Shown: one piece after another, positions 3,465-20,700 of the stretch
Position numbering within the stretch: the first letter of the stretch is position 1
Layout: each line of letters begins with the position of its first letter
NCBI RefSeq assembly: GCF_000341395.1
Contig: NC_020304.1
Span: forward strand, 2,520,001-2,552,000
DNA: 32,000 nucleotides
Direction: 5' to 3'
Origin: Desulfocapsa sulfexigens DSM 10523
Lineage (GTDB): Bacteria > Desulfobacterota > Desulfobulbia > Desulfobulbales > Desulfocapsaceae
The notes under the pieces: model-generated
The model's input: only the letters and a program-made list of their open reading frames with translations
What the model was told of the DNA's origin: nothing
Databases searched by the model: none
Translations under genes and position numbers: made by a program

Positions 3465-3470
3465 AAACCG

Positions 3471-4220: not shown

Positions 4221-4221
4221 C

Positions 4222-4860
4222 TTAATACTCCTTGAACATCATATAAGAAGCAAAAACGCTTTCATAATCTTTGTTTTCGATTAATTTTATTAAATATGGG
4301 GTAAACTTGAAAAATATCAACGTAAGGAGATGACGATACTTATCAAAGTCGATATAAGGTGTTATAGTTTCTAGTTCTTTAATATGCTTTCTTCTGAATT
4401 CTCTTTTGTCAAAAATTGAGTGGCATATTAAATGTATCGCCAAATCTGTATTATCTGGCTGAAAAAACCATATATCTTGTACTCTTTTTTTATTTTTCCA
4501 AATAGATTTCTGAATTTCTTGATGAACAGAAACCCATTCATTGTGGTTTGGACTTTGGTAAGCAAGGGAATAAACAATATCAAAATGCAAATCTCTTTTT
4601 CGGCAAAAAAAGTGCTGGTGCGGTTCTGCATTGTATAAATATATGTTTTTGTCTCTTGAGTCTTCACTGCATTTATAACCTAATTGCGAAAAAAGCACCT
4701 CGATCGTTTTTTTATGTTTCGGCTTGCATAATATGTCAAGATCATTAGACAGTGACACTTTTTTTGGTACATCAGAAAAACCCCTAAGAAAAATAAATTC
4801 AACCTCATTGCCATGCAAGCTATCAAATACTTTCCTCAATTCTCCTAACTTAGAAGTCAT
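4222..4860 (-). CDS. Putative nucleotidyltransferase-fold protein (NTP_transf_5-like), uncharacterised
   Basis: 212-aa ORF with an ATGA overlap with the upstream gene. FLRGFSDVPKKVSLSNDLDILC followed by HFDIV fits the Pol-beta NTase pattern ([DE]h[DE]h ... h[DE]h). The region is very AT-rich. Confidence 0.4.
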   Translation of the reverse strand: MTSKLGELRKVFDSLHGNEVEFIFLRGFSDVPKKVSLSNDLDILCKPKHKKTIEVLFSQLGYKCSEDSRDKNIYLYNAEPHQHFFCRKRDLHFDIVYSLAYQSPNHNEWVSVHQEIQKSIWKNKKRVQDIWFFQPDNTDLAIHLICHSIFDKREFRRKHIKELETITPYIDFDKYRHLLTLIFFKFTPYLIKLIENKDYESVFASYMMFKEY

Positions 4861-5072
4861 TTTATACCCTTTAGGTTTCTCAGGTTTTCTTCTGCTAACA
4901 ATATTGCCAATGCATACCTTATGTAGTCATTTTTTTTTATTTCTAAGCGAAAGCTGTCTGATTGAATATGCACCACTTCCTCATATCCTGAAATATTAGG
5001 GTGGTTTAACTCAATCTCGAATACGGTATTTATTAGTTTCCCCTTTGACAATGTTTTTATCTTTTCACCCAT
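4857..5072 (-). CDS. Small hypothetical protein (71 aa)
   Basis: ATG at 5072. It overlaps both neighbours (16 nt upstream, ATGA downstream). The segment VFEIELNHPNISGYEEVVHIQSDSFRLEIKKNDYIRYALAILLAEENL is similar to RFVIEDNIGESIHLHIDNMRVDFTIKDFLEFTKFIRSSLKEL in the 249-aa protein. Confidence 0.4.
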   Translation of the reverse strand: MGEKIKTLSKGKLINTVFEIELNHPNISGYEEVVHIQSDSFRLEIKKNDYIRYALAILLAEENLRNLKGIK

Positions 5073-6019
5073 CTTAATAGTCTCTTTATTTTATGTATGA
5101 TTTTTGGAAAAAAGGCACTTTTTTTTCTTTCGTGAACCAGTGCCTCAAAGTTTATATTTGGCAAAAAAACAACAGGGTGCTTTAGCGGGAGCGTAATATC
5201 TTTTTTTTCTACACTACCCATGTTACTGCCAGGGGAGGTTGTATGGGTTGCTTCTTCACCAAAACCAATATTTTTCACAAGACTAACATGTGGGATAACG
5301 ATGAGAAATCTGTTGACTAATCTTGTGAAAATCCATTGATAATCCCAAGTGTCTATCTTTCCAGCATAAGTATTTTCAAAAGCACTCAATCTTGTTTTAT
5401 ACTCTTGATTGTTTAATATTGCTCCTTTCAATAGCCCCCCTCGGATAACTTCTGGGAAAAGACCCAAATTAACATCATAGAAACTCCAAGCTCGCCTCCA
5501 GCTCGCCCACCCCCAAATACTCCCAAAATTTGAAAAGTGATATGATTTATTGTTTATGCTAAAGTCCCCAAGGGCATTAAACCCACTTATTTGACCTACC
5601 CGTTCATCATCCTTATACTTTTTCAAAAGCTCTTCACAGAACCAAAAAAAACTCTGATTCGGCAAACAATCATCTTCCAAAATAATCCCCTGCTCCTCGT
5701 TTTCAAAAAACCAAGTGATGGCACTGCTCACGGCATACTTGCATCCAAGGTTTTTATCTCGAAACAAAGTCTTCACCTCGCAAAGCCAGTCAACTGCGGT
5801 AGCTATTTCCCGTACATTAATTACCTTTTCGGCCTCACCTTCATATTCAGGACGTGGGCCGTCAGCAGCCACGTAGAGACGCGGCGGTTTGGCTTTGCGA
5901 ATGGTCTCGAACACCTGAGATGTCGTATCCGGACGGTTGAAGACTAGAAACAGCACGGCAGTGTTTAACGGTGCTGGCGGTGTGAATTTTACAGATTGAG
6001 TCATGGTTTGGTCTGTCAT
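5057..6019 (-). CDS. Nucleotide-diphospho-sugar transferase (GT2/GnT-I-like glycosyltransferase)
   Basis: 320-aa ORF. AVLFLVFNRPDTTSQVFETIRKAKPPRLYVAADGPR and GIILEDDCLP are typical of the GnT-I-like bacterial transferases that are often annotated as HlpA-like. An alternative ATG lies at 6004. Confidence 0.7.
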   Translation of the reverse strand: MTDQTMTQSVKFTPPAPLNTAVLFLVFNRPDTTSQVFETIRKAKPPRLYVAADGPRPEYEGEAEKVINVREIATAVDWLCEVKTLFRDKNLGCKYAVSSAITWFFENEEQGIILEDDCLPNQSFFWFCEELLKKYKDDERVGQISGFNALGDFSINNKSYHFSNFGSIWGWASWRRAWSFYDVNLGLFPEVIRGGLLKGAILNNQEYKTRLSAFENTYAGKIDTWDYQWIFTRLVNRFLIVIPHVSLVKNIGFGEEATHTTSPGSNMGSVEKKDITLPLKHPVVFLPNINFEALVHERKKSAFFPKIIHKIKRLLRWVKR

Positions 6020-6470
6020 GTGTCTTGGCTCTGAATGAATTCGTCGAAGTAGCCAATGGTCGGCTTCAAACTATTTCCAGGGACACCCTGGGCGCCCCAG
6101 TTAACTTCGCGGCGATTAAGCTCAATATCGGGCTGGCGTTATTTAAGGCCGTCTCCATAGAGGGTAGTCGTTTTAGCGTAGCGCTTGCCCTCGTCAATAG
6201 GAACGCGGAGAGATCTGTTTGACATGACCGACATAACCCCTATTCCGAGGATAAATCTGCTGGTCGTCATAGAGACTCGCTGGTGGATGCCTGAAATCCG
6301 CACCTTAATCAGCCAGGCTAGTCCCAGCGTATTGATGGCCACATGCACGCTGGTCCTGGTGATTTGGTACCGGATCAAGCGACAAATGGATGGAGAGTGC
6401 GGAAAAGCAGATGTTAGATTTCGTCCACCTCCATATAAAGCACGACGGTAATATCGTGGCGCATCATTTC
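6016..6470 (-). pseudogene. Decayed coding remnant(s) of unknown family
   Basis: The reverse frame ...VHVAINTLGLAWLIKV...IDEGKRYAKTTTLYGDGLK is interrupted by TAA at 6139-6141. The same frame then continues RQPDIELNRREVNWGAQGVPGNSLKPTIGYFDEFIQSQDT and ends in an ATGA overlap with the start of the downstream transferase (6016-6019). A further frame-shifted piece, MNHYTLRPRPLTTSTKGNILHLLVKSHNEMMRHDITVVLYMEVDEI, lies upstream. Confidence 0.3.
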
Positions 6471-6565
6471 GTTATGGGATTTGACAAGTAAGTGCAGGAT
6501 ATTTCCTTTAGTGCTGGTGGTGAGGGGGCGGGGACGTAGGGTGTAGTGGTTCATTGGTTCTAGTC

Positions 6566-7906
6566 CTAAAGTCTTGTTGTGGTGCGTTCCCAAATGGCAT
6601 GAAGGTTAAATGATCGTATTTTCATCACAAACATTTTACGGGTGTCTCTTTGAATTGCATCATAAAATAGACATGCTGTAGCCTGTCCAACTACAGTAGC
6701 CACAGCCGCTCCCAATACTCCGTGTAGTGGTATGAATAGAAAATTTAGACCAACATTGACAATTGCCCCCATAACTGTCCGCTGAAGACTCAAGATTTGG
6801 CGGTTTTCAGCAAGAAACCATTTGCCGCTAGCTAAACCGAGAGAGACAAAAACGGCAGCCCAGACATGGATGGCCAGGACTGAACCTGCTTGCTCGTAGG
6901 CATCTCCGAACAACAGCGAAATGATGGTCGTGGATAAGAAGGTCATTGGTAGTGCCACGGCAATAGCAATCCATACCATCAGGTCGTACAGGCACTGCAG
7001 CCGTTCGTAATACTGCTTCTCGCTCCGTTTTTTTGTCTCTAGTATTGCCGGGAAGACAGAAGCTACAATTGCCATGGGGACGAAATACCAAACTTCGCTA
7101 ACCCTCGTTGCTGCGCTATAAATACCTACTGCTTCATCGCCGATCATTTGTCCAAGCATGATCTGGTCAATCTTCATGTAGATCATAATTGCAATGCCGG
7201 ATAGCAGCAGTGGCCAGCTATCTGCCAGTAGGGTCTTCGTACGTTTAAAGCTGGCGGTGAGGCTACTGAGCTGGGGGCCGCGTAGGTCTAGCATCAACAA
7301 CATCAGCAATGCTACGACCAGCGCTTCGGCCATTATTGCCCAGGCAAAGGCAATCAGTGGGCTGTTTTGTAAAATGAGCCCGACCTTGATGACGGCGAAG
7401 AGCAGAAATACGCCATTCTGCACCCAGACGGTGTATTTAGATAATACCTGCGATTCAAACCAGTAAACGGAAACCTTGGCAGCCTTAAACAGCATCATGG
7501 AACCAAGGATGCTGGCAATAGCTTTGGCCAAGGCGTCATCTGCCCGCAACCAAAAGATGGTTGTGAGAATCAGTGTGTAGGCAATGAGGCCACCAAGAAA
7601 TTGCAGTATGGCGGCGGTGCCCAGCGTTTCTTCCTTGCCGCTGGGGTTGTGAACTATGTCCCGCACCACTATGCTCTGCAGTCCTAGGGTAGCAATGGCA
7701 CCAAACAACTCGATAAATGCGGTGGTAAAGTTCAGCAGTCCAAACTGTTCGGGCCCCAGGTAGCGGGCAATCCATACGCCAACAAACAGCCCTACCCCCA
7801 TACGCAGAATTTTATCAAAGAACAGCCAACCGATGTTATCGACAATCTTGAGCAGATTGGGTCGATGCTCAATATAGTGGCGGATAAAAGAAGGAATAAT
7901 ATTCAT
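6566..7906 (-). CDS. wzx: Polysaccharide/O-antigen flippase, MOP superfamily (Wzx-like)
   Basis: 446-aa polytopic membrane ORF with an ATG at 7906. The N-terminus LLKIVDNIGWLFFDKILRMGVGLFVGVWIARYLGPEQFGLLNFTTAF is typical of the Polysacc_synt families. Confidence 0.8.
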   Translation of the reverse strand: MNIIPSFIRHYIEHRPNLLKIVDNIGWLFFDKILRMGVGLFVGVWIARYLGPEQFGLLNFTTAFIELFGAIATLGLQSIVVRDIVHNPSGKEETLGTAAILQFLGGLIAYTLILTTIFWLRADDALAKAIASILGSMMLFKAAKVSVYWFESQVLSKYTVWVQNGVFLLFAVIKVGLILQNSPLIAFAWAIMAEALVVALLMLLMLDLRGPQLSSLTASFKRTKTLLADSWPLLLSGIAIMIYMKIDQIMLGQMIGDEAVGIYSAATRVSEVWYFVPMAIVASVFPAILETKKRSEKQYYERLQCLYDLMVWIAIAVALPMTFLSTTIISLLFGDAYEQAGSVLAIHVWAAVFVSLGLASGKWFLAENRQILSLQRTVMGAIVNVGLNFLFIPLHGVLGAAVATVVGQATACLFYDAIQRDTRKMFVMKIRSFNLHAIWERTTTRL

Positions 7907-8219: not shown

Positions 8220-8630
8220 CTAATTGTCTTGGATGAAGACAAGAGGGGATATGTTGAATTTTAAGCTTAGTTCTTTGACTTGCCTGATATTCAAATGCCT
8301 CTTTCCTTTCAAAATTTCTGACACAACGCCCTGACTACCAATTTCTGGTAGATCTGTTTGTTTCAGATTGTGCTCTTTCATTAAGTAGCGTAATGATTCA
8401 ATTGGGTGGCCATGCATTGTTGGGACATTCTTGTTCTCATAGGTTTCGATTAAATTACCAATACTCTCCATTAATGAGGCCAGTGGGTGATTTTCGTTTT
8501 CACCTACTTCATCTATGAGGTTGTCCAGCATGGAAACAAGGTGTTCGTATTCTTCTTCGGTATGGGGAACAGAGAAAATACTTTTAATTTTGGGCCATAC
8601 ATTGGCGATATCTTCTAATTGAGTTTCCAT
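8220..8630 (-). CDS. higA: HigA-family antitoxin (HTH/XRE-type)
   Basis: I place the start at the ATG at 8630 (METQLEDIANVWPK), preceded by GGAGGGAGGG and 1 nt after the higB stop. It has the layout of E. coli HigA (YgjM), with a C-terminal HTH (LKQTDLPEIGSQGVVSEILKGKRHLNIRQVKELS). Confidence 0.8.
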   Translation of the reverse strand: METQLEDIANVWPKIKSIFSVPHTEEEYEHLVSMLDNLIDEVGENENHPLASLMESIGNLIETYENKNVPTMHGHPIESLRYLMKEHNLKQTDLPEIGSQGVVSEILKGKRHLNIRQVKELSLKFNISPLVFIQDN

Positions 8631-8631
8631 T

Positions 8632-8922
8632 TTATCCCTCCCTCCATTTATTTTTGTCATATTCTTTATGCGTCAGAATATTACGGACATATAATCGTTG
8701 TGTGTTGTAGTGAATAGCGGCTATAAGCCTTGCTTTATTCCCTCCAACATTAAATACTGTTAATCCTTCAACTTGGTCTGCGCTTGGGAATATAGTTCTT
8801 AGTTCGGAAAAATTTAAAATGGTGGAATTTTTTAAAATTCTATACCAAGATTCAAGAGCAGTTGCGCACTGAGGATGTTCGTTGGCAAAATCTGTTAGTC
8901 GCTTACGAGTGATGATATGCAT
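8632..8922 (-). CDS. higB: HigB-family type II toxin (mRNA interferase)
   Basis: 96 aa. MHIITRKRLTDFANEHPQ...VFNVGGNKARLIAAIHYNTQRLYVRNILTHKEYD matches the HigB_toxin family (E. coli YgjN-like). Confidence 0.85.
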   Translation of the reverse strand: MHIITRKRLTDFANEHPQCATALESWYRILKNSTILNFSELRTIFPSADQVEGLTVFNVGGNKARLIAAIHYNTQRLYVRNILTHKEYDKNKWREG

Positions 8923-9003: not shown

Positions 9004-9840
9004 TCAAGTGTAGATCGAATAACTAATAACAAGAAACCAGCATATTGATATAATCAACATGATTCGGTCATTGATTAGTATTTCCATAGGGTCACCCGAT
9101 TGTCCACACCAAATCCGATGCAGGTATCGTAAAAGCCCAAGGCAGCAAAGGGGGACTGTGTATATAAGAAATGGTCGGCCAATAACATAGATTGAATATG
9201 TCACCAAAACAGTTCCTCCAGTCATAAACATGATACTCTCAAGGAATCCCGTCCGGTATTGTGAGAGTACGGAGCGATGTGCTGAAGCGTTGGTGCGTAA
9301 AGATTTTTTTTCAGCCAACCGTTTGCCGGCTCCTAGAAAGAGAGCAAGAAAAAAAACAGTGAGAAACAGCCATTCAGAAACCGGAGTTGCAAAGGCTGCG
9401 CCTCCAGCCTCAAGGCGGAGAAGAAATCCAGTGGCAATACAAAAAATGTCTAATATAACGATCTGCTTCCACCAGATGCTATAGCAAATAATCAAGGTCT
9501 GATAGGCTAGAAGGTAAAGGAAAAATAGCCATGAGATTTGAGTGGCAAGTATTAGACTGAGGAGTGTAACAGTTGTTCCCAGGTATAAAGCTGATGTTTT
9601 TGAAATTTTCCCAGCAGGCAAGGGACGATTTTTTTTTGAATGATGCAGTTTGTCTTTCTCCAGGTCTGCAATATCATTAAATATATACATCCCACTTGCT
9701 CCGAGACTAAATGAAACAAAAGGAAGAATTAAGTGGGCGAGTGTTTCCGGTAGAAAGAAAATTCCTCCAAAAAACGGTGGAAAAATAAGCATCAGGTTTT
9801 TTAACCAGTGCCTTGGGCGGAGGAGTGTGTACCAGTGCAA
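9004..9840 (-). CDS. UbiA-family prenyltransferase, decaprenyl-phosphate phosphoribosyltransferase-like (Rv3806c type)
   Basis: 278-aa polytopic ORF. The TTG start at 9840 is preceded by AGAGGT. LLRPRHWLKNLMLIFPPFFGG and NDIADLEKDKLHHSKKNRPLPAGKIS match the family motifs. Confidence 0.7.
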   Translation of the reverse strand: MHWYTLLRPRHWLKNLMLIFPPFFGGIFFLPETLAHLILPFVSFSLGASGMYIFNDIADLEKDKLHHSKKNRPLPAGKISKTSALYLGTTVTLLSLILATQISWLFFLYLLAYQTLIICYSIWWKQIVILDIFCIATGFLLRLEAGGAAFATPVSEWLFLTVFFLALFLGAGKRLAEKKSLRTNASAHRSVLSQYRTGFLESIMFMTGGTVLVTYSIYVIGRPFLIYTVPLCCLGLLRYLHRIWCGQSGDPMEILINDRIMLIISICWFLVISYSIYT

Positions 9841-9848
9841 TGTTACCT

Positions 9849-11570
9849 CTATTTTCGTGAGAGTTTCTTCGCGTAGGTTTTATATGGGCTATCATCTGCG
9901 AATGCTTCGTAGGCCATTGTAAAATATTCTTTTGCTTGCTGTGTCTTTTGCAGTTCAAGGGATAGTTTGCCAAGATTATACCAGATAAAAGGGTCTTTCT
10001 TAATTTTGTATAATAGCGTACCACTTTTTCCTGCTTCTTTGTAGTAGCCTTCTCGTTCATCTTGATTATTGGTTTCCCTGGCCAGTTGAGAGTATGTAAT
10101 AAGTAAGCCATCCAAGGCAGGAGCGTATTTGTAGTCACTTTTTACTGATATTTGTTTGAAGGTGTCCAGGGCATCGTTGTATCTCGCAAGGTTAAAATAT
10201 ATAAAACCTAAATTTCTCTCAGCCGTATAATCTTTCATTAATGGGGGACTTTGTAAACTGCAAGCCATCTTAGTGACTTCAAGTGCCTTTTCATGGTCGC
10301 CCTTTTTTGAGAGTGCTGCGCCATAGACCCAATGAATCTTTTTTGAATATGGTGATTTTATTGATGTGTCTTCAAGGATTTTTAAATTGGAATGCCAGAT
10401 AAGACCTCGCTGATAAGTTGAATAGGAAAAAGCTATCAAAAGAATGACCATCAGTGGGCTATAAATCGACTGGTTCTTTCGCGATGGATTTCGTGCAAAT
10501 ATCCCAATAGTGCTCAAAAGAATAAAGGCCATACTTATATAGACATATCTTTCAGCAAAAGGGGTCCAGGCGATCTGGTTCAGGACAATTAAGAAGGAGG
10601 GGGTTAGTAAAATGATTCCAGTTAGAAAGAATGCGGCAAGGAGTGATCTGTTCCATAGTAGCCATATGCAGAGAATCACAATAGGAATAGCTAAAAGATC
10701 ATAGAGTGGATCAACTTCCAGTATGGCAAAGTTCAGAGGCCATGGGAAAAATATTTTTTTTATGTAAAAACCTAGAGCTCTGCAAAACAACATGAGCGAG
10801 TGTACAAGATTAATATCCATGTACTGAAGCGTCAGGCCGATTCTACTGGAGTTCGAAATTGTTCCCCCAGTGCGGATTATGAAAAAAAGGGCCAACGGAA
10901 TAGTAGTGGCGAGTGTGGCAAAAAGAATGAAGAGTCTGTTGTTTGAACTTTTTGAGTTGCTTTGTATAGTTGCTGGTATGGCGAACAGTATGAGTATGGC
11001 CCCTGGAATGAAGGCGACAGCCACTTCTTTGGAGAGCATTGCCAACAGACTGGCTATGGCTGCGAACAGTAGATACGTTTTTCGTTGAGATTGTCTGTAG
11101 TGTAAAATCAAAAGTGTCGCACCAAAGATAAACATTCCGGCTAGTAGGTCTGTACGTCCGGAAACCCAATTCACTGATTCTGTGGTCAAAGGGTGGAGGC
11201 CCCAGAGTAGTGCTGTGAAAAGTGGAAAATAATTTGGTTGTTTTTTGTTTACGGTAAACAGAAGTCGGGCGATATAAAAAAGTAGAAGGATAGAAATGAG
11301 GTGGAATAAAACATTTTCCAGATGCATCCAGAATGGGTTGATTTGAAATACGTTTTTATCGACCCAGAATGTTACACCAAGAATTGGGCGGTAATAAAGG
11401 GTTGATTTTCCTTTTCGGACGAATGTATCAAGAGGGTTGGAATAACTTCTGTGTTCAAGCGATGTGAAAAGTTGTGCATCGTCAACAGCACAGATCTCAG
11501 CAGAAAAAGAAGGGTAAAAAACAGCCAAACAGGCAAATATCAAAAAGAGAACCTGTGCCCGAACAGTCAT
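9849..11570 (-). CDS. GT-C fold membrane glycosyltransferase (TMTC/PMT_2/DUF1736-like) with C-terminal TPR repeats
   Basis: 573 aa. The N-terminal two thirds are polytopic and carry YYRPILGVTFWVD, NPFWMHLENVLFHLISILLLFYIARLL and WVSGRTDLLAGMF, which are TMTC-type signatures. The C-terminal 170 aa or so is TPR-like (KALEVTKMA..., ARYNDALDTFKQ..., QQAKEYFTMAYE). The ATGA overlap with the ABC ATPase stop is at 11567-11570. Confidence 0.65.
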   Translation of the reverse strand: MTVRAQVLFLIFACLAVFYPSFSAEICAVDDAQLFTSLEHRSYSNPLDTFVRKGKSTLYYRPILGVTFWVDKNVFQINPFWMHLENVLFHLISILLLFYIARLLFTVNKKQPNYFPLFTALLWGLHPLTTESVNWVSGRTDLLAGMFIFGATLLILHYRQSQRKTYLLFAAIASLLAMLSKEVAVAFIPGAILILFAIPATIQSNSKSSNNRLFILFATLATTIPLALFFIIRTGGTISNSSRIGLTLQYMDINLVHSLMLFCRALGFYIKKIFFPWPLNFAILEVDPLYDLLAIPIVILCIWLLWNRSLLAAFFLTGIILLTPSFLIVLNQIAWTPFAERYVYISMAFILLSTIGIFARNPSRKNQSIYSPLMVILLIAFSYSTYQRGLIWHSNLKILEDTSIKSPYSKKIHWVYGAALSKKGDHEKALEVTKMACSLQSPPLMKDYTAERNLGFIYFNLARYNDALDTFKQISVKSDYKYAPALDGLLITYSQLARETNNQDEREGYYKEAGKSGTLLYKIKKDPFIWYNLGKLSLELQKTQQAKEYFTMAYEAFADDSPYKTYAKKLSRK

Positions 11571-12439
11571 GCCTGTTCCCTGTTGATGAGTTCAAGAAAA
11601 TATTTTTCAAGATCCTTACGGAGTGGTTCAATAAGGCTAACTGGATCCGCCGTACTTTCACGACTTGTAAAGAAACGAGTAAGTTCGTTTTTGTCTATCC
11701 TCTGTTCATATATGCTTCCATCGGGATGTATAAGGTGGACAGCATAGCCGATGATGCCTTTTTGCATCACTTCAGACACCTTTTCAACAGCAATAAGTTT
11801 CCCATTTGCAATGATACCTATCCGATCACAGATTTGTTCAACATCCGAAATAATATGAGAAGAAAGAAATACGCATTTGCCGGCTTCTTTTAATTCAAGA
11901 ATGATTTCCTTGACAAGTGTACGCCCCAGAGGGTCAAGACCGGACATAGGCTCATCAAGAATATAAATATCTGGATTATGGACAAGTACCTGGGCAATTC
12001 CGAGACGCTGCACCATACCTTTACTGTAAATGCGAAGTGGTTTTTTTCGGACTTCCCAAAGTTTGAGGCGACGAAGGAGTGATTCTATTGTAACAGAAAG
12101 GTCGACTTTTTTTATTCCAAAGACCTGACCTGTGAAAAAGAGATATTCCTCTGCACTTAAGTAATCAAAAAAGGTTGGGTGCTCTGGTAGGTATCCTACG
12201 GTTTTTCTAGCTCTGGCGTCTGAAATATTAATTCCAGAGAGCTCTGCGTTGCCACTTGTGGGGCGAATAAGGTCAAGAAGGATTTTTATAGTCGTGCTTT
12301 TTCCAGCTCCGTTCGGGCCAAGAAAACCAAAAACTTCACCTTTATTTATTTGCAACGAAAGATTGTCCAGGGCGAGATTTGGGAGACCTTTTTTAGCTTT
12401 ATAAACTTTTGTCAGATTTGAAATTGAAATGGCTTGCAT
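11567..12439 (-). CDS. ABC transporter ATP-binding protein (ABC-2 type)
   Basis: I place the start at the ATG at 12439 (MQAISISNLTKVYK). Motifs present are Walker A GPNGAGKST, signature YSKGMVQRLGIAQ and Walker B IYILDEP. The ORF-track extension to 12562 overlaps the upstream gene. Confidence 0.9.
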   Translation of the reverse strand: MQAISISNLTKVYKAKKGLPNLALDNLSLQINKGEVFGFLGPNGAGKSTTIKILLDLIRPTSGNAELSGINISDARARKTVGYLPEHPTFFDYLSAEEYLFFTGQVFGIKKVDLSVTIESLLRRLKLWEVRKKPLRIYSKGMVQRLGIAQVLVHNPDIYILDEPMSGLDPLGRTLVKEIILELKEAGKCVFLSSHIISDVEQICDRIGIIANGKLIAVEKVSEVMQKGIIGYAVHLIHPDGSIYEQRIDKNELTRFFTSRESTADPVSLIEPLRKDLEKYFLELINREQA

Positions 12440-12449
12440 TTGGTGGTAA

Positions 12450-13328
12450 CTATTCGTTATTAGGCACAAAAGAGAATTTACTTGTGCTTCTTGGTTTTTT
12501 GTTTTTGTCGAGGTAAAAGGTACCTCCATATGGGTCAACCAGAGGAGCTGAGAGATATCCACCGAAAATAAGGGTGTTTATGTCAGACGGGCTGGTACCC
12601 TCTTGGGTAATGTATTTCTGTACAGCATCTTCTATGCGTTGCACTTCCTGCAGTGCTTGCAGGCGAAGTTGATAAGACTCCCGGACAGATTTATTTTTAG
12701 TATTCTTAACCATAGTGTCAAGATACACTACAGCCATGTCTGTTTCCCCGCCTTCATAGAGGTATCTGCCAGCTAAACGGCCGAAAAGTGGGGAGTGAGT
12801 GATTTTTTGCGCGAGCTTATAGTATTTAGCTGCTTTTGGATAATCCTTCAGGAAATAGCCATAGTTGAATCCTGCAAAAAATGGAAGATAAAAATCCCAA
12901 TCACGATATTGCATACCGTATTCAAGAAGTTCAGTTATTTCAGGAATATTTCTTTTATCCCAGGCCATTGCTTGGGCAAGATAGTAGCCATCCATATTAT
13001 ATGGGTCGAGTCTGGACGCGGTTTTGAGCAGAGTGAAGGTGTTTTCCTGCTCTGCTAATTGAGAATGATGACTCGGGTTAAGTTGAAGCAGATGGCCGGA
13101 ATGAAACACTACTTTCAAAATAAGTAGTACAGCTGTGAGATCTTTTTGATCAGTGGCGGCGAATTTTATAATGGCAGGTTGAAGAGTATAACCTATTTTT
13201 TGGAGAAAAGGCCGTTCCTGCATATAATGGGTGAAATGGGGCAGGATGCTAATGTGGCAAACAAGAGTAAAGAGTAGGAGTGTTGAGGCTGTCCTCACTG
13301 CATTTCCCTTTGTGAAAACAAAAGACAT
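12450..13328 (-). CDS. Hypothetical membrane-anchored or periplasmic TPR-like protein, accessory to the ABC-2 transporter
   Basis: 292-aa ORF with a hydrophobic N-terminus (TLLLFTLVCHISIL). It contains helical-repeat-like segments (YYLAQAMAWDK..., DYPKAAKYYKLAQ...). It is embedded between the permease and ATPase genes. Confidence 0.5.
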   Translation of the reverse strand: MSFVFTKGNAVRTASTLLLFTLVCHISILPHFTHYMQERPFLQKIGYTLQPAIIKFAATDQKDLTAVLLILKVVFHSGHLLQLNPSHHSQLAEQENTFTLLKTASRLDPYNMDGYYLAQAMAWDKRNIPEITELLEYGMQYRDWDFYLPFFAGFNYGYFLKDYPKAAKYYKLAQKITHSPLFGRLAGRYLYEGGETDMAVVYLDTMVKNTKNKSVRESYQLRLQALQEVQRIEDAVQKYITQEGTSPSDINTLIFGGYLSAPLVDPYGGTFYLDKNKKPRSTSKFSFVPNNE

Positions 13329-14086
13329 GCTATTCCAAGTATAATCCCGATATAACTAACTCCATAACTTGTTATCAACAATAAAGAACTACTGTTAAGA
13401 GTTAAGCCATAAGTGGCTTGGCTGGACAGGTCAAAAGCACTGAAATTTGGTAAAATGTAATAGAGGTACTTAGCCACTTGAATTGTCACTACTGATAACT
13501 GCTGACCTTGGTCTGTATGAATATAGTCAAATACTTCCTGGGTGGCACTCCCGGCAAGATAGGTCGCAATGGTACCAAAAATTGGTAGAAAAAAAGAAGT
13601 GCTTACTGAAGAAAGAACAAAAGCGATAGCAATAAGCAGAGAATATTTGAGGGCATCAAAAAATATGGCTATGGCTATATTATTCCAGAGTATTGGACGA
13701 TCAGGCGGGTATGCTGCGGCAGCAAACCAGATTGCTCCAACAGTCATGATTGCTAAAAACAAAGCTGTAATCAGGACAAAACCTATTATTCCAAAGTACT
13801 TACCAAGCAGGTAAGATGTTCGGGTGATCGGCATCCCGAGGGTGCTGTAAACGTATTTTCTTTCAATGTCCTTCCAAAGAGAGGTACCTCCTAAAAATAC
13901 GGAGATAAGTAAAAGGATAAATGATGTTAGGGATAAAGAAAGTGTAGTCGCCAGGGCGGCAACCTGTCGGAGAGAAAAAGTGCTTGCTGCAGGAATGGTG
14001 AGAAATATAACAGCTGTACAAACTATACCTTGGTATAACTTGTCTCGTAGTACTCCCTTGAAGCTTATTAGAAAGACTGAAAACAT
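13295..14086 (-). CDS. ABC-2 family transporter permease (NosY/ABC2_membrane-like)
   Basis: 263-aa ORF with about six hydrophobic spans. The N-terminus MFSVFLISFKGVLRDKLYQGIV is typical of ABC-2 permeases. ATG at 14086. Confidence 0.7.
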   Translation of the reverse strand: MFSVFLISFKGVLRDKLYQGIVCTAVIFLTIPAASTFSLRQVAALATTLSLSLTSFILLLISVFLGGTSLWKDIERKYVYSTLGMPITRTSYLLGKYFGIIGFVLITALFLAIMTVGAIWFAAAAYPPDRPILWNNIAIAIFFDALKYSLLIAIAFVLSSVSTSFFLPIFGTIATYLAGSATQEVFDYIHTDQGQQLSVVTIQVAKYLYYILPNFSAFDLSSQATYGLTLNSSSLLLITSYGVSYIGIILGIACLLFSQREMQ

Positions 14087-14096
14087 TTATAAAATG

Positions 14097-14150
14097 CAAC
14101 AGAGACAGAGCCGCGCCTGGCGACCTGTCTCTGTTGGTGTGGTTTTTTTT
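14097..14150. terminator. Perfect 12-bp stem-loop between the pilin module and the ABC operon (possible bidirectional terminator or attenuator)
   Basis: CAACAGAGACAG (14097-14108) pairs with CTGTCTCTGTTG (14125-14136) across a 16-nt GC-rich loop. T8 at 14143-14150 lies on the plus side. In minus sense the hairpin is followed by CATTTTATAAATGTTTTC. Confidence 0.5.
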
Positions 14151-14167: not shown

Positions 14168-14470
14168 TTAAAATCCACTTAATGTTGTTGCGTCTGCCTG
14201 GGTTGGGGGATCAGCGTCGGCGGCTAAATCTGTGGTAGACATATCTGTCATTGTATCAGTTGTTCCAAAAGCAGTTAATCCACCGGCGGTATGTTTACTT
14301 GCGGCAGCATAGGCCACGTTGGTGGCAGTAGCAGATATTACTACATTAGTTGATACTTTGAAGTCAGCATCGCCTAGCTGTGTGGATGCCGTATCGTCTA
14401 GCGTAGCTGCAAAAGCGGTCGCTGAAGAAAACATACTCATAATAAAAACAATACTTAATACCTTTTTCAT
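14168..14470 (-). CDS. Secreted Thr/Ala/Asp-rich small protein in the PilA-C position
   Basis: 100-aa ORF with a GGAGA Shine-Dalgarno sequence. It has a Sec-type signal MKKVLSIVFIMSMFSSATAFA|A. The mature 79 aa contain 17 Thr, 16 Ala, 10 Asp and no Cys (my count). It sits 55 nt downstream of the short pilin. Confidence 0.6.
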   Translation of the reverse strand: MKKVLSIVFIMSMFSSATAFAATLDDTASTQLGDADFKVSTNVVISATATNVAYAAASKHTAGGLTAFGTTDTMTDMSTTDLAADADPPTQADATTLSGF

Positions 14471-14525: not shown

Positions 14526-14756
14526 TTACAGGTTCGGATATGCTTGGGCATCAGCATAGCCAGCTTCCATTGCTGTTTTGAAATTTCTCAGATCACTTTG
14601 AGCAGCTTTGTCAAAAGCTTTGGCACGGTATGAGGAAAACTGAGGAATAGCAATAGCAGCCAAAATACCAATAATTGCAACAACAATCATCAATTCAATC
14701 AGGGTAAAACCTTTCTGTCCGGATTTTCTTCGAAGCTGTTTCCGAAATGTGTTCAT
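14526..14756 (-). CDS. pilA: Truncated type IVa pilin, Geobacter PilA-N type
   Basis: 76 aa with an AGGAGA Shine-Dalgarno sequence. The prepilin leader ends ...GQKG|[60 protein letters not shown]. The mature protein is 60 aa with no globular domain and no Cys. Confidence 0.9.
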
Positions 14757-14854: not shown

Positions 14855-14994
14855 TGAGTCGTTTAGAAATACAAATATTTATTTTATCTTATGAAAATAA
14901 TGAATTGGATCATGTTGAGTTGTTTGGGAATTGTTGCGAGAAGATGTAGAACCGGATTGAACTGACAAAAAAAAACATTCAATGACATTTATTG

Positions 14995-15366
14995 TCACTG
15001 AATACCACCAGCATCACTGTCGTAGGTAACAACCAAACCACCATGAACATTATCGGTAGTTGTAAAGCTAAAGGAGGTGCTGTTGCCAACCCAGTTACCC
15101 ACAGTGGTGTCAGGGGAGATATTGTTCCCTCCATAAATAGCCGTTTGTACTGCAGCAGCTGTGTTTGAGTAGGTACCATGGTCGGTAAAGTAGGCCACCT
15201 GAGCATTTGCTAATGTATGTGCGTCAGATTTAAGAACTGCTATAAAGGCTTTATTGCGATAGGCAGAATACTGCGGGATCGCTATAGCTGCCAGGATAGC
15301 AATGACAGCAACTACTGTCAAAAGCTCAACCAAACTAAAGCCTTTTTTATTTCTGTTTACTTTCAT
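14995..15366 (-). CDS. Full-length type IV pilin (PilE-like, or a major-pilin paralogue), cysteine-free
   Basis: I place the start at the ATG at 15366. MKVNRNKKG|[32 protein letters not shown]... is a class III signal with Glu5. A C-terminal domain of about 55 aa is present. The ORF-track N-terminal extension overlaps pilX. Confidence 0.85.
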   Translation of the reverse strand: MKVNRNKKGFSLVELLTVVAVIAILAAIAIPQYSAYRNKAFIAVLKSDAHTLANAQVAYFTDHGTYSNTAAAVQTAIYGGNNISPDTTVGNWVGNSTSFSFTTTDNVHGGLVVTYDSDAGGIQ

Positions 15367-17338: not shown

Positions 17339-17750
17339 TCCATTTTCCCTCCCGAACACTACTGTTAGCTATGTTGATACATGAATACTCAGTTATGGGG
17401 GTCGTCAGGCGGATAAAGCCTCCAACATTGAAAAGTCCTCTGCTGTTTATAGTAAACGTCCCTGCTGAGCCGGTAAAATCATTGTTCATGTCAACCAGAT
17501 CAGTATCCAGGTCGTTTGTGAGCTGGTTGGTGGCAACTGTTATGATTATCGGAGTCTTTTGGGTAAAAGCTTTTAAACGTTTGTCTTGAAGAAATGTGAT
17601 CATTTTATCAAGGTCCGTTTGTATAACATGCACAGTTGATATCTGTTTATAAGCAACCATGGCAGCTCCCATCAAAATCGCCCCTATAGCTAACGTAACG
17701 ACGATTTCAACCAAGGTGAACCCTTTTGTGTTGGTTATTTTTCCAGCCAT
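17307..17750 (-). CDS. FimU/GspH-like minor pilin
   Basis: 147 aa beginning MAGKITNTKG|FTLVEIVVTLAIGAILMGAAMVAY. It is the first minor pilin after pilY1. Confidence 0.7.
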   Translation of the reverse strand: MAGKITNTKGFTLVEIVVTLAIGAILMGAAMVAYKQISTVHVIQTDLDKMITFLQDKRLKAFTQKTPIIITVATNQLTNDLDTDLVDMNNDFTGSAGTFTINSRGLFNVGGFIRLTTPITEYSCINIANSSVREGKWNVATSSCDAK

Positions 17751-20700
17751 AAAATGATTTCTCCAGTTAAACTTGGGCTGGGAGGAATAAATGGAGTGGG
17801 TGATTCAGGAGGAATACCGGTAAACCACTTTGTGGACTTGCCGCCTTCCTCGGAGAAATCGTCTTCATTTAAGCCTGCTCCTTCTATGTTACCACCACTG
17901 AGCTGGAGGAGTAAAGAACCATCTCTGTAGTCAGTTGTGTAGCCATCACAGCCTCCCCAGATACTGTCTCCAGACATGCAGTTGAGCGCCCACATTCTTG
18001 AACGACCACCAAAATCGCAAGGATTGGATGATGGTTGCATGGTAGTAAAAAATACTATGTTAGTACCATTCGCAAAAGTGGGATCAGTAATTGTCCGTTC
18101 CTTTGCGTAGCTATCACCTTTTGGCTCCAGTTCGTCAACAACCCAGCCTAACGTTTTCTCGTCATCAAGATTGCCTACTTCCTGACATATGTCATTATTG
18201 TTGTGAGCGTAGTTAAGAGAACATGTTTTACCTGCAAGAATATCATTCAGACAATCTCTTATGAGTATGCCGTATAATTTTTCTGTTTTTGTCTGGTTTA
18301 CGCCAGGAGAATCGTCTTTGTAAAACCAACGACCGGTACCAAAGTAGATCATTGGATAATTGAAGCAGTCTCCATATACGATTTTTGAAGTAACTGGATA
18401 ATCGGTCGATTCGACAACTGAATCAAAATACCAGTTTGGTGTTTCATCCGTTCCCGCGGTAACATCAGCCTTGTCCGTTGGGTCGTAGCTGGTAATATTA
18501 CCATCTCCATCAACAGCGTTTTTGGGGACGAGGGCAATCACGGTTCCAGCTGTACCATTGGCATCATTGACACCAAAAAAGACTATGTCGGTATTTCCGT
18601 CACGATCCTGATCAATGCCATTGGTGAATAAGCGGCCACCAAAGGCGCTGTTATATGATCCCAATTCTGAGTCAGTGATGAAGCCGTCCTTTTTACTGTC
18701 TCCGGTGAATTTGAATATATCGTCAGCATCAGTATCACCATCGTTATCCACATCAACGAGGTTGAAATCACTGTCAACTTTCAGCATAAATACATTTAAA
18801 TTTTGGGCATCCACACTGCCTTGGTCACCATTGGTTTCGGCCCTGTAGTTCAGGGGACCACTGGTAAACATGACGTAGGCGTTGCCGCCTCGCTTTATGT
18901 ATGCAGGTCCGGAGTAGGTTAAGCCAAGGTTAGGGTGAGTGAATTCCCATAAAAAAACGGGATTTCTCGGATCAGAGATGTCAAGAGCGAAATAGGAAGA
19001 CAGACCTACGGCAGATTCGGGTGTTAATGGGTCTGCTCCGGGAGCAACCACCTGTGTTCCATCGTCAGGATCACCACACCATCTGTCTTTTGATTCGTAG
19101 GTACATCCGGCAGCACCACCAAATCGCATTCCACCGATTATAATATCTTTAGTGCCGTGCTTAATGCGGTAAGGTGCCATATCTGTAGTATAGATATGTT
19201 TGTAAGCAGGGTCTGTAAGATATTTCAGATACGGCATGGCATTTTGCGGGATAAAGGCCCAAAGTTCTTCACCCACTTCGTCCTGAAGACAAGAAGCATC
19301 AGAATTGTTGTCACAGAGGCGAACCGCCTGTTCAGTTGTGAGTCCATCTGTTCTGATTTTGCCGGCATGAAAGGCATGGAGCATTCCATCGTTTGCCGCA
19401 GCAAGAACGATTGAGAAATTTTCGTTGTCGACAACCTGGGGGGTTGAATAAATAATATCACCAAGTTTCCAGATTTCTCCAGCGTCATTTACAACACGGT
19501 TACGACAGGCACTACTTGTCACTTTGTCACTTGTGCCACTGAAGTCATCTGCGGCCCCGCGAATATAACTCATGAGGTTTATCGATCGAATCTCTTCAAG
19601 TTTGTCAGCATCTGGCGGGTCGGTTTCGTCAGCCGCAACACCAAGACAATCAGGGATATCTGTCTGTGTCTCGTCCAGGCGCATATTCTTTTTAAAGAGG
19701 GTGTAGTTATCAGCAAGGAATTCGCTCATGGTTCCAGATTCGTTTATGCCATAAATCGTACGGCCACCATTGCTTCCTGCTACCCATTCGTCGGGAGTAG
19801 CAACGTCACGTTTTTGAAGCTGATAGCCACCTTCCCATATTCTGCTAACGTCATCAATTGAGTTGTAGGAACCCAGTAATGCATCAGCCTTTCCATCGTC
19901 ATCATTTTGGCTGTCGATAAGGCTGTAGTAATCAATGTTCAGGCTGCCTTCAGCGTCAATTCTGAAGTCGAGAGCATGATCGTCATGCGTATCAAGATAA
20001 AATTCTGTTCCAACAGCATTATCTTCTCTGATGTTTGATACTGTGCCGGAATTAAAGAACCAGTAAGTATTGAGAGCGCCTGTCCATAAAAGGGATCGTG
20101 TGGTTCCGTCATCGATAAATGATTTTTCAGGAAAAAAGAGGGCCTGATGAATAATGGAACCTTCAGTAGCTCGTTCTGAAAGTACAGAGATCGAGGATCC
20201 TGCAGCAGTTTTTGTCAGGATGTTCGAAAAGGCATCAGCAAGTGCGGTTTCGAGCTGGTGCCCATCGTCAGCAGCGTAGGCTTCTCCATTACCATTGTCA
20301 GCGGTATCCTGAAGAATCTGCGGGATTGTCGCTTTTCCAAAAGCAACAGTATAGGTTTCAATATGTTGGTTTCCTGTCATTCCCGTGTCATCGCGCAGAT
20401 CACGGAAGTCTGAAGTGTCTTTGTCCCAGTAGGCCCAATAGGCGAGGTCGTCTAAGATGTCTTGGCAACCATTTGCCGTGTCTCCACTATCTGAACAATC
20501 GTCCGTGTTACTGTCATCGTCATAGTCAACAGTGTCCGCTGTACCATTACCTGTGGAGTCATAAAAATCAGGAACGTAATCATCTCTGTAGGGTTCGCCA
20601 TCTGTGAAAATTAAAACAAAAGATTTGGCACAGCGAATAGTCTCCTCATATTCATCAAAATAATATGGATCCCAGAGATGTGTCGCCCCATCGGGGTCAT

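Follow-up and report, generated by a model that had tools for sequence, protein, structure and literature searches.

Five consecutive genes in a 32,000-nucleotide stretch of Desulfocapsa sulfexigens DNA (the window) lie beside the genes for a split pilin, and the reading we favour, with a probability of roughly 0.4, is that they form one operon serving this pilin (PilA-N plus PilA-C) through periplasmic O-glycosylation with a lipid-linked pentofuranose, the encoded exporter supplying the donor. Such a role is suggested by the tight gene junctions, by a DPPRS-like UbiA protein, by TfpW-type features of the GT-C enzyme, by linkage to pilin genes and by the Ser/Thr-rich composition of PilA-C-like proteins. 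It is also suggested by the loss of pilin in Geobacter xapD and Myxococcus pilGHI mutants, and by two loci (L029 and L030) in which the GT-C gene stays with the pilin genes. Many bacteria carry the block beside short pilins, among them Geobacter, in which it is known from mutant phenotypes alone.

An ORF listing confirmed the five ORFs of a first-pass annotation at the stated coordinates, all on the minus strand. The operon begins with a PilI-like ABC-2 permease (13295-14086; 263 aa), followed by a PilG-like membrane-anchored TPR-like protein (12450-13328; 292 aa, or 282 aa from a GTG at 13298), a PilH/XapD-like ABC ATPase (11567-12439; 290 aa from ATG), a GT-C-type membrane glycosyltransferase with a C-terminal TPR domain (9849-11570; 573 aa) and a UbiA protein resembling the Rv3806c-type polyprenyl-phosphate 5-phosphoribosyltransferases (9004-9840; 278 aa, TTG start). 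The longest ORF for the ATPase extends to 12562. The junctions given in the annotation were reproduced when read directly from the DNA: a 34-nt overlap between the permease and TPR-like genes, a 10-nt gap before the ATPase gene, an ATGA overlap between the ATPase and GT-C genes and an 8-nt gap before the UbiA gene, all of them overlapping or shorter than 11 nt. Because the GTG at 13298 creates a GTGA stop/start overlap, is preceded 7 nt upstream by AAGGGA and yields the 282-aa form annotated by NCBI, it is probably the real start of the TPR-like gene, which is coupled to the permease gene whichever start is used.

Upstream on the same strand lies a Geobacter-type, PilA-N-like short pilin (14526-14756; 76-aa precursor, 60-aa mature form) that matches the Pfam family N_methyl (E 5e-11) and is 69% identical to G. 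sulfurreducens PilA-N. It is followed by a PilA-C-like secreted, Ser/Thr-rich protein of 100 aa (14168-14470), a candidate acceptor, whose similarity to G. sulfurreducens PilA-C is weak but specific (E 8e-5). The hairpin proposed between these genes and the permease is real: a strong stem-loop on the minus strand at 14097-14136, with a folding energy of -28.3 kcal/mol (z -4.85), that none of 200 shuffled sequences equalled. It stops 10 nt short of the permease ATG, is followed by UUGCAUUUUAUAAAUG, and was not called by a simple terminator scan. In 52 loci a PilA-C-like ORF separates the short pilin from the block, with a median length of 118 aa and a median Ser plus Thr fraction of 0.25. No glycan on a Geobacter-type pilin was documented in the literature searched; the one PilA modification reported, a glycerophosphate on Tyr32 (cited in PMC6201914), is no pentose.

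Linkage to short pilins, whose absence would have counted against the reading in the annotation, is strong and extends across Geobacteraceae, Desulfuromonadales, Desulfobulbales and Nitrospirota. Loci were retrieved by GT-C similarity alone, and in 57 of the 65 with enough upstream sequence a short pilin of 58-65 aa lies within 1.3 kb upstream. Of 39 loci having at least 6 kb on each side, 36 contain all five genes, joined just as tightly, a recurrence that exceeds chance in a GT-C-selected set. In about one third of loci the order is GT-C, permease, TPR-like protein, ATPase and UbiA, and there the GT-C gene directly follows the pilin/PilA-C pair; since this places the ABC genes between the GT-C and UbiA genes, it argues for one unit rather than two.

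The UbiA protein matched PF01040 over residues 33-251 (98.4 bits against a cut-off of 34.2), with no extra domain detected in its 278 aa by Pfam or NCBIfam. Three NCBIfam decaprenyl-phosphate phosphoribosyltransferase models matched it with E values between 8e-58 and 2e-44, and a fused UbiA-family model of 482 positions with 1e-46, whereas ordinary (non-fused) prenyltransferase or haem O synthase models reached 1e-17 at best. A search of the PDB returned Rv3806c (8j8j; E 7.6e-37, aligned over residues 6-273), while the next UbiA structure scored 5e-07. By these scores the protein clusters with DPPR synthases and not with quinone or haem prenyltransferases, the Rv3806c-type polyprenyl-phosphate phosphoribosyltransferases being clearly its closest group. 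Its identity to Rv3806c is 28% over 276 aa, close to the 31-34% shared among experimentally characterised members (PMC11127046) and thus in keeping with a DPPRS-like assignment.

The motifs RPxxWxKN and NDxxDxxxDxxHxxKxxRPxxxG, reported earlier for this protein, were found as RPRHWLKN and NDIADLEKDKLHHSKKNRPLPAG, and match IRPRQWVKN and NDVRDVEADREHPTKRFRPIAAG of Rv3806c column by column. N55-D56-x2-D59-x3-D63 in the first cytoplasmic loop and K173-R174-x2-E177 in the second align with the corresponding Rv3806c residues and are kept in at least 95% of 56 orthologues; mutation has shown the NDxxDxxxD and KRxxE residues to be required in Rv3806c and ORF15 (PMC11127046). Between them, the UbiA protein and the GT-C are probably responsible for the synthesis and use of a lipid-linked sugar of the ribose type.

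The description of the GT-C protein as TMTC-like held for its architecture, a GT-C domain followed by a TPR tail, but not for its family signatures. PMT_2 was sub-threshold in Pfam (25.6 bits against a cut-off of 26.1) and matched 23 of 74 homologues scanned; DUF1736 gave no match to the window protein at E ≤ 0.01 and was absent among the 25 families listed of 31 matched by the 74 homologues. The TPR repeats span approximately residues 395-573, with TPR_1, TPR_2, TPR_8 and TPR_12 matches between 449 and 565, and an AF2 model (pLDDT 89.5) contains helical repeats at 395-572. In the same model D30-D31 sit in the loop after the first helix; this pair is invariant in sets of 74 and 26 homologues. 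Other invariant residues are R139/D141, K181/E182, Y269-x6-P276-x-P278 and E340/R341. Foldseek returned PglB (E 5e-4) as the sole membrane enzyme among 50 matches listed, together with the TPR domains of OGT and MamA. A profile of the membrane domain found no match among the sequences of solved GT-C enzymes, even with the threshold relaxed to E ≤ 10.

The permease gave a weak Pfam match to ABC2_membrane_5 (E 2.4e-4) and, in a crude hydropathy scan, six hydrophobic windows, two of them overlapping. The TPR-like protein matched no Pfam or NCBIfam family. In its AF2 model (pLDDT 91.8) an all-alpha TPR-like solenoid is flanked by a helix at the N-terminus and a beta hairpin at the C-terminus, and Foldseek returned TPR proteins only; the family of this protein comprises 1092 clusters at E ≤ 1e-10. 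The ATPase matched ABC_tran (E 3.6e-30), with drrA- and GldA-type models as the best NCBIfam subfamilies. Each has a counterpart in G. sulfurreducens: the permease is 44% identical over 257 aa to a gene whose KN400 equivalent was published as PilI, the TPR-like protein 42% identical to the counterpart of KN400 PilG, and the ATPase 49% identical over 300 aa to the protein that is PilH in KN400 and, by gene position, xapD. Homology searches led to the naming of the KN400 genes as homologues of pilI, pilG and pilH of Myxococcus (Sharma et al. 2018, PMC6060248 supplement), and through these labels the three window proteins are, by similarity, the counterparts of PilI, PilG and PilH.

The first-pass annotation had also placed xap directly downstream of pilA-N/pilA-C, which is correct: the cluster (GSU1498-GSU1508) directly follows pilA-C in G. 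sulfurreducens (PMC3495685), and the five genes recur there in identical order. Judged by gene order and identity, the block is no orphan but corresponds to the first, conserved half of xap in Geobacter. The view that this gene combination was uncharacterised does not stand, as the ABC genes have been published as pilI/pilG/pilH homologues (PMC6060248 supplement) and the ATPase is xapD.

In the mechanism that we favour, the UbiA enzyme would transfer 5-phosphoribose from PRPP to polyprenyl phosphate at the cytoplasmic face, as its family and motifs suggest and as modelled on Rv3806c, P. aeruginosa PsPA7_6246 and C. youngae ORF15. Ribofuranose is the probable donor sugar, given that the block has no linked epimerase: DprE1/DprE2 genes are absent from the window, as previously noted, and none is conserved downstream of UbiA in 50 related loci. 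The lipid-linked sugar may then cross to the periplasmic face through the PilI/PilH ABC-2 exporter together with membrane-anchored PilG; this is the weakest step, and a flippase role is proposed because the permease and ATPase constitute the only transporter in the operon. There the GT-C would use the donor at its periplasmic DD loop while its TPR tail holds a protein acceptor, as gene linkage and the analogy with TfpW suggest, and this acceptor would most likely be Ser/Thr residues of the PilA-C-like protein or of the short pilin. The hairpin after pilA-C may allow only part of pilin transcription into the operon. Against this mechanism, the block lacks both a linked phosphatase for the 5-phosphate (no HAD or PAP2 ORF in the window, none conserved at 50 related loci) and a GtrA- or MATE-type flippase (none in the window, with no other flippase candidate conserved near the 50 loci). 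Moreover, GT2-Wzm-Wzt polysaccharide genes directly follow UbiA in 28-37 of 50 loci, and it is in this setting that known three-component pentofuranose systems modify polysaccharide.

That setting favours an alternative in which UbiA, the ABC-2 exporter and the GT-C add periplasmic pentofuranose side chains to a neighbouring extracellular or O-antigen-like polysaccharide, which in Geobacter would be the Xap polymer and in the window the glycan that is encoded at 104-7906 and depends on Wzx, with pilin adjacency arising only from the coupling of pili and exopolysaccharide. We regard this as unlikely, if far from negligible. Deletion of xapD removes about half of the exopolysaccharide (10.1101/114900), the effect for which xap ("extracellular anchoring polysaccharide") was named (PMC3495685). 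The GT2, Wzm and Wzt genes, the last with a Wzt_C module, also follow UbiA in G. sulfurreducens, the polymer modified by the characterised Citrobacter system is made by Wzm/Wzt (PMC11127046), and a Wzx flippase and GT2/GT9 genes lie downstream of the block in the window. However, the GT-C tail is a TPR domain and not a carbohydrate-binding module, and in L029 and L030 the GT-C gene alone follows the pilin genes and is succeeded by unrelated genes, with no polysaccharide, ABC or UbiA genes nearby. In addition, the window contains no Wzm/Wzt genes, and a HigBA toxin-antitoxin pair separates its UbiA gene from the glycan locus. Since losing the pili is by itself enough to abolish exopolysaccharide in M. 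xanthus (PMC3724824), the polysaccharide defect of the xapD mutant could be secondary.

It is also conceivable, though we think it improbable, that the block comprises two modules, with PilI/PilG/PilH acting on pilin (membrane extraction, export or quality control), a role already proposed in M. xanthus, and the GT-C and UbiA forming a separate system whose flippase comes from elsewhere. M. xanthus PilGHI is described as needed for pilus assembly and PilA export (TCDB entry quoted in PMC3924187; PMC3724824), and no GT-C or UbiA gene was reported beside pilGHI of M. xanthus in the literature searched, implying that the ABC transporter may act independently of a sugar donor. Among the 39 loci, UbiA is missing beside the ABC genes in one (L027), and in two the GT-C occurs with neither of them; the flippases of known pentofuranose systems are small proteins of the MATE or GtrA type rather than ABC exporters (PMC11127046). 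Separate modules are nevertheless hard to square with the joint occurrence of the five genes in nearly all loci, with the alternative gene order, with the ATPase/GT-C stop/start overlap in Desulfocapsa and the equally tight G. sulfurreducens junction, or with the lack of another conserved flippase candidate near the 50 loci. Finally, the UbiA protein might not use PRPP at all, prenylating some other small molecule while the GT-C draws on an unrelated donor such as a polyprenyl-P-hexose. Its scores fall below the curated cut-offs of the three DPPRS equivalog models (195.8 against 207 for NF008978, 188.8 against 234 and 152.3 against 474), and neither a 5-phosphate phosphatase nor an epimerase is linked to the block. 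Yet the E-values of the DPPRS models are better than those of ordinary non-fused UbiA models by some 40 orders of magnitude, Rv3806c surpasses the next solved UbiA structure by 30, and 56 orthologues retain the positions that correspond to the N/D/D/D found essential by mutation in ORF15, which makes this last possibility highly improbable.

A broader proposal is that the PilGHI/XapD-type ABC-2 exporter is the missing flippase for polyprenyl-phosphate pentofuranose donors and that Geobacter-type split pili (PilA-N/PilA-C) are O-ribofuranosylated by the adjacent GT-C with its TPR domain. We know of no ABC-2 exporter shown to flip a polyprenyl-phosphate pentose, and we hold the proposal doubtful. 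If true, one mechanism would account for pilin loss in Myxococcus pilGHI and Geobacter xapD mutants as well as for the loss of matrix polysaccharide in the latter, and would explain the route by which the donor of TfpW-type systems crosses the membrane.

Among known systems, eukaryotic TMTC1-4 (GT105), protein O-mannosyltransferases with Ser/Thr acceptors, resemble the window GT-C in overall architecture, a GT-C domain with several membrane passes preceding a TPR domain, which in TMTC1-4 lies on the non-cytoplasmic side; they differ in their DUF1736 signature and in the predicted donor. TfpW, encoded downstream of pilA, is a GT-C whose first periplasmic loop bears a DDX motif and whose C-terminal domain is a TPR; its polyprenyl-phosphate pentofuranose donor requires an Rv3806c homologue and its targets are Ser/Thr residues of pilin, and pilin glycosylation is described as important for pilin folding, stability and assembly in P. 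aeruginosa Pa5196 (bioRxiv 10.1101/2020.04.19.049825). Compared with TfpW as described there, the window GT-C likewise has DD in its first loop, a TPR tail and a pilin neighbour, and its Y269-x6-P276-W-P278 is similar, though not identical, to the TfpW motif YX6PFX7P. TfpW adjoins the pilin gene, and the window GT-C lies four genes downstream of the short pilin. The TfpW system includes the epimerases DprE1/DprE2, which provide its arabinofuranose donor, and a GtrA-like protein, neither of which occurs in the window or at related loci, and it has a full-length pilin and no ABC exporter where the window has an ABC exporter and a split pilin; within the P. aeruginosa system for group IV pilin arabinosylation (TfpW plus PsPA7_6245-6251) the flippase is not yet assigned (bioRxiv 10.1101/2020.04.19.049825). 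The three-component systems of Citrobacter youngae O1/O2 (Kelly et al. 2024) combine, as does the window, an Rv3806c-type synthase, a transporter and a periplasmic GT-C. Their synthase, however, carries a fused HAD phosphatase domain that the window UbiA lacks, their transporter is of the MATE family rather than an ABC-2 exporter with a TPR partner, and their GT-C (GT136 type) has a carbohydrate-binding module and an O-polysaccharide acceptor in place of a TPR tail.

The closest likeness is to Geobacter xap, with the five genes in the same order after pilA-N/pilA-C, identities of 44, 42, 49, 30 and 51% in gene order, junctions of -4, 11, 4 and -4 nt that give a layout like that of Desulfocapsa, and xapD (GSU1501) in the position of the ATPase. 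The Geobacter block runs on into GT2-Wzm-Wzt-GT1-GT4, whereas that of the window ends at HigBA, beyond which lies the Wzx-type glycan locus. Within xap, xapD alone has been studied, by deletion, and the five genes have no assigned biochemical function. M. xanthus PilG/PilH/PilI (MXAN_5782-5780; TCDB 3.A.1.144.5) are likewise encoded by three adjacent genes, in their case directly downstream of pilA. Both sets comprise an ABC-2 permease, an ABC ATPase and an extracytoplasmic protein, which in M. xanthus has no recognised domain; the order pilG-pilH-pilI differs from permease-TPR-ATPase. Mutants in M. xanthus pilG, pilH or pilI are described as having neither pilins nor pili (PMC3724824), and in the G. 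sulfurreducens xapD mutant PilA is likewise undetectable (10.1101/114900).

An ORF scan reproduced all five minus-strand genes of the block described in the first-pass annotation, encoding a permease (13295-14086), a TPR-like protein (12450-13328), an ATPase (11567-12439), a GT-C protein (9849-11570) and a UbiA protein (9004-9840). The junctions, read directly, were also as described there: the permease and TPR-like genes overlap by 34 nt, a 10-nt gap leads to the ATPase gene, the ATPase and GT-C genes share an ATGA overlap, and the UbiA gene begins with a TTG codon 8 nt after the GT-C gene. The TPR-like gene has an alternative GTG start at 13298, preceded by AAGGGA and forming a GTGA stop/start overlap, and the NCBI annotation uses the corresponding 282-aa form. 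A hairpin at 14097-14136, 3′ of the gene for a 100-aa secreted protein (14168-14470), was predicted by folding (-28.3 kcal/mol, z = -4.85 versus shuffles); it ends 10 nt from the permease ATG and was not called by a simple terminator scan. Promoter and terminator scans of the window gave counts not above those for shuffled sequence. Because promoter-like sites were no commoner than in shuffles and the simple scan called no terminator at the hairpin, the block seems most likely to be transcribed by read-through from the pilin genes. An Rfam scan of the window returned no match and no PRPP-type riboswitch. Further upstream, a hairpin resembling a terminator, with a long run of T (14974-15006, minus strand), lies directly 3′ of a gene for a 148-aa pilin, so that the 148-aa pilin and the short pilin seem to be transcribed as separate units.

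In transcription order the upstream genes begin with pilS and pilR (Pfam/NCBIfam). These are parted from the pilin genes by an insertion of unrelated plus-strand genes (22700-28750), which encode a copper P-type ATPase, ATP sulfurylase, 3-dehydroquinate synthase and a zinc-ribbon protein. The pilA-N gene of Geobacter directly follows pilR. Next, before the permease, come several minor pilins, the 148-aa pilin, a Geobacter-type short pilin of 76 aa (14526-14756) and the 100-aa secreted protein; the last is homologous to G. sulfurreducens PilA-C, a weak but specific relationship (E = 8e-5). Just upstream of the minor-pilin run, in the place expected for a PilY1-like adhesin, is a 1653-aa ORF (17735-22696, minus strand) with no Pfam match at E ≤ 0.001. 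At the other end of the block, a HigB toxin/HTH antitoxin (HigA) pair (8220-8922, minus strand) occupies a stretch of low GC (0.378) between the UbiA gene and genes for a Wzx flippase and GT2/GT9 glycosyltransferases. The pair looks like an insertion at the operon end, since GT2-Wzm-Wzt genes directly follow UbiA at most related loci. A search of the window found no DprE1/DprE2-like ORF, in agreement with the first reading, and no HAD, PAP2 or GtrA-like ORF.

The ATPase is a standard ABC-2-type nucleotide-binding domain of the drrA/GldA kind (Pfam, NCBIfam) and the permease has a weak ABC2_membrane_5 match (Pfam). The 292-aa TPR-like protein between them, PilG-like by the nomenclature discussed below, matched no Pfam or NCBIfam family, and a search of 1.84 billion cluster representatives yielded 1092 clusters of its family at E ≤ 1e-10. 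Its AF2 model (pLDDT 91.8) starts with a helix, continues as a TPR-like solenoid and ends in a small beta hairpin; Foldseek searches with this model returned generic TPR proteins only and gave no functional lead. The C-terminal 60 residues carry a conserved DPYGGxFYLD...STSKF beta hairpin resembling the DPWGxxY core of GspG pseudopilins. A GspG-like pilin core was considered but is not claimed here, as the window protein had no match and its Geobacter homologue (11490-12347 of the G. sulfurreducens locus) matched T2SSG at a non-significant E of 0.15.

The 278-aa product of the last gene matched Pfam UbiA (PF01040) at 98.4 bits. Three NCBIfam decaprenyl-phosphate phosphoribosyltransferase models were matched at E = 8e-58, 1e-55 and 2e-44, and a fused 482-position UbiA-family model at 1e-46, versus 1e-17 or worse for ordinary prenyltransferase and haem O synthase models; the best equivalog model scored 195.8 bits, just below its curated cut-off of 207. 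Among PDB sequences, Rv3806c (8j8j) was matched at E = 7.6e-37 over residues 6-273, and the next UbiA structure at 5e-07. The protein is 28% identical to Rv3806c over 276 residues; experimentally verified members of this family share 31-34% mutual identity (PMC11127046). The RPxxWxKN and NDxxDxxxD...RP...G motifs on which the DPPR-synthase assignment had been founded align with Rv3806c, as does a KRxxE motif, and all are kept in 56 orthologues. By its NCBIfam and PDB scores the protein groups with the Rv3806c-type family and not with MenA/UbiA or haem prenyltransferases.

The 573-aa GT-C protein had been called TMTC-like, and this description held for its architecture, a GT-C domain followed by clear C-terminal TPR repeats, and not for its family signatures. 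Its PMT_2 score of 25.6 bits is below the threshold of 26.1, PMT_2 was matched by 23 of 74 homologues (E ≤ 0.01), and DUF1736, the TMTC signature, was absent from the 25 listed of the 31 families that these 74 homologues matched. Among the invariant residues are the first-loop pair D30-D31, R139/D141, K181/E182, Y269-x6-P276-x-P278 and E340/R341. The AF2 model is confident (pLDDT 89.5). Foldseek searches with the full-length model were set aside as a guide to subfamily: TPR proteins dominated, and PglB, the sole membrane enzyme among the matches listed, was too weak (E = 5e-4, TM 0.35). A profile of the membrane domain alone found no PDB sequence even at E ≤ 10. Because of the weak Foldseek match and the blank profile search, we treat the protein as a GT-C from a family without a solved relative detectable by sequence. 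At some loci the block contains two GT-C paralogues, adjacent in L015 (8131-11527) and L018 (7499-10881), and separated by the ATPase gene in L002 (7454-8680 and 10001-11719, one copy being a partial match); such pairs may reflect two linkages or two acceptors, with a priming and an extending enzyme.

For the homologue survey, one genome per species was scanned with a GT-C alignment and the best 80 of 432 confirmed loci were kept; since loci were chosen on GT-C alone, their neighbouring genes constitute an independent observation. All five genes were present at 36 of the 39 loci (92%) flanked on each side by 6 kb or more, the exceptions being two loci with GT-C only and one without UbiA. Searches by tblastn with the window proteins found the order pilS-pilR-short pilin-(PilA-C)-permease-TPR-ATPase-GT-C-UbiA in Geobacter, Geomonas, Geotalea and Geothermobacter, and the same order, pilin genes followed by the five-gene block, in Desulfuromonadales, Desulfobulbales and Nitrospirota/Thermodesulfovibrionales. 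A second common block order is GT-C-permease-TPR-ATPase-UbiA, and a rare third begins with the ATPase. The proposed linkage to pilins was borne out: a pilin of 58-65 mature residues lies within 1.3 kb upstream at 57 of the 65 loci with at least 1.3 kb of upstream sequence. The distance from pilin end to first block gene is 390-650 bp at all of these 57 except L030 (32 bp) and L066 (1183 bp), and at 52 of them the interval contains a Ser/Thr-rich ORF (median 118 aa, median S+T fraction 0.25). Downstream of UbiA, 50 loci were compared: a GT2 gene was found at 37, a Wzt-like ATPase at 30 and a Wzm-like permease at 28, and no epimerase, phosphatase or small flippase was conserved there. The block gene most tightly tied to pilins is GT-C. 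It stands alone behind pilin genes in L029, followed by another pilin and an SPFH protein, and in L030, followed by Trk genes and a HlyD-type membrane-fusion gene. L030, from Nitrospirae, has at 9086-11722 a short pilin, a 112-aa ORF and a second short pilin, with GT-C beginning 8 nt later; no ABC or UbiA genes were present within 10 kb, and the donor for this GT-C must therefore come from elsewhere.

The gene combination, initially regarded as not known from any characterised system, already has two names from genetics, xap and pilIGH. Myxococcus pilGHI was reportedly found in 1998 to be required for pilin export and pilus assembly, and Geobacter xapD is said (2011) to be required for matrix polysaccharide, for the anchoring of cytochromes and for PilA to be detectable. 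The earlier statement that a xap operon lies beside the G. sulfurreducens pilins proved correct, the extracellular anchoring polysaccharide cluster being GSU1498-GSU1508 (PMC3495685). A G. sulfurreducens locus reached through an approximate PilA query (84-94% match to real sequences) reads pilB-pilT-pilC-pilS-pilR-pilA-N-pilA-C-permease-TPR-ATPase-GT-C-UbiA-GT2-Wzm-Wzt-GT1-GT4, with block junctions of -4, 11, 4 and -4 nt and identities to the window proteins of 44, 42, 49, 30 and 51% in block order. The xapD gene of G. anodireducens is four genes away from pilA-N (PMC9070056), which is where the first ATPase lies, and not Wzt. In G. sulfurreducens KN400, Sharma et al. (2018) list, after PilA and two small hypotheticals, PilI (ABC2_membrane_2), PilG (no domain) and PilH (ABC_tran), and next a UbiA protein, then GT2, ABC-2 and Wzt_C genes (PMC6060248). 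The additional small hypothetical accounts for the number GSU1501 of the ATPase. Given these names, the first three block genes are probably the counterparts of the pilGHI pilus ABC transporter of M. xanthus. The G. sulfurreducens locus also encodes, at 1-1600, a further GT-C of 623 aa (TMEM260/DUF2723 type), two genes upstream of pilB and ahead of a shikimate dehydrogenase gene; it too is a candidate for a protein glycosyltransferase beside pilus genes.

The mutant phenotypes concern both pili and exopolysaccharide. S motility, pilus assembly and PilA export are all said to require M. xanthus pilGHI (PMC3924187); its mutants are described elsewhere as having no pilins or pili (PMC3724824), and a deletion strain as lacking exopolysaccharide (PMC5544727). 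The Geobacter xapD mutant lost about half of its exopolysaccharide, and in a later study its PilA was undetectable (10.1101/114900). A caveat to the glycosylation reading given below is that the one modification reported for Geobacter PilA, as cited in PMC6201914, is a glycerophosphate on Tyr32 and not a pentose.

We propose, with a probability of roughly 40%, that the operon is a pathway for pentofuranose O-glycosylation of pilin, running from synthase through ABC exporter and GT-C to the pilin. The synthase would make polyprenyl-P-ribofuranose, possibly retaining the 5-phosphate; the PilI/PilH exporter, with PilG, would bring this lipid-linked donor to the periplasm; and GT-C would move the sugar onto Ser/Thr of PilA-C or the short pilin, the acceptor being held by the TPR domain. 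Loss of the pathway would destabilise the pilin, as reported for the Pa5196 system (10.1101/2020.04.19.049825). Pilin glycosylation would account for the phenotypes of both xapD and pilGHI mutants, with the defect in exopolysaccharide secondary to pilus loss, as in M. xanthus. The gene structure, the family placement of the UbiA protein, the conservation of the block, its pilin linkage and its correspondence to xap/pilIGH are shown by the data, and the donor identity, the flippase role and the acceptor are inferred from them. A rival idea, that the UbiA protein does not use PRPP, draws solely on the sub-cut-off equivalog scores and is very improbable.

Decoration of a polysaccharide would fit the Wzm, Wzt and glycosyltransferase genes that usually follow the block and has a precedent in Citrobacter; however, the GT-C tail is made of TPRs, and there are loci with GT-C beside pilins and no glycan genes, which makes this reading rather unlikely. 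That transporter and enzymes are instead two independent modules is suggested by M. xanthus, which appears to have pilGHI without the GT-C and UbiA enzymes, but is quite improbable in view of the 92% of loci with all five genes together and of the alternative order, which places the ABC genes between those for the GT-C and UbiA enzymes. Pilin glycosylation would bring together two old genetic observations, on pilGHI and xapD, that have been without a mechanism. In Geobacter, in Desulfocapsa and in many uncultured members of the Desulfobacterota and Nitrospirota, an operon immediately after the split pilin genes unites a pilGHI-type transporter with a TPR-bearing GT-C and a predicted synthase of lipid-linked pentose that would use PRPP; pentofuranosylation of PilA-C or PilA-N would bear on the debated properties of Geobacter pili. 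Our search of the available literature found no earlier proposal joining these observations, or of Geobacter-type pilin pentosylation, which does not prove that none exists.

Every part of the operon has a known relative, and it is not a new kind of system. Two known systems pair an Rv3806c-type synthase with a GT-C acting in the periplasm. In P. aeruginosa, group IV pilins are arabinosylated by TfpW. This GT-C, encoded just after pilA, carries a DDX motif in its loop 1, ends in a TPR domain and needs the Rv3806c homologue PsPA7_6246 together with DprE1 and DprE2 (10.1101/2020.04.19.049825). Citrobacter O-antigens receive ribo- or xylofuranose from a three-component system, in which the synthase carries a fused phosphatase, the transporter is a MATE protein and the GT-C includes a carbohydrate-binding module (PMC11127046). 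The operon described here resembles the P. aeruginosa system in its Rv3806c-type synthase and TfpW-like GT-C, and differs from it in lacking the epimerase that DprE1/DprE2 provide. Whereas the TfpW and Citrobacter systems have a small transporter or none, this operon contains an ABC-2 exporter and its TPR partner; an ABC-2 exporter in the flippase place of a lipid-pentose pathway would be new, and could reveal a class of transporter for lipid-linked pentoses relevant to the TfpW system of Pseudomonas as well as to arabinan synthesis in mycobacteria.
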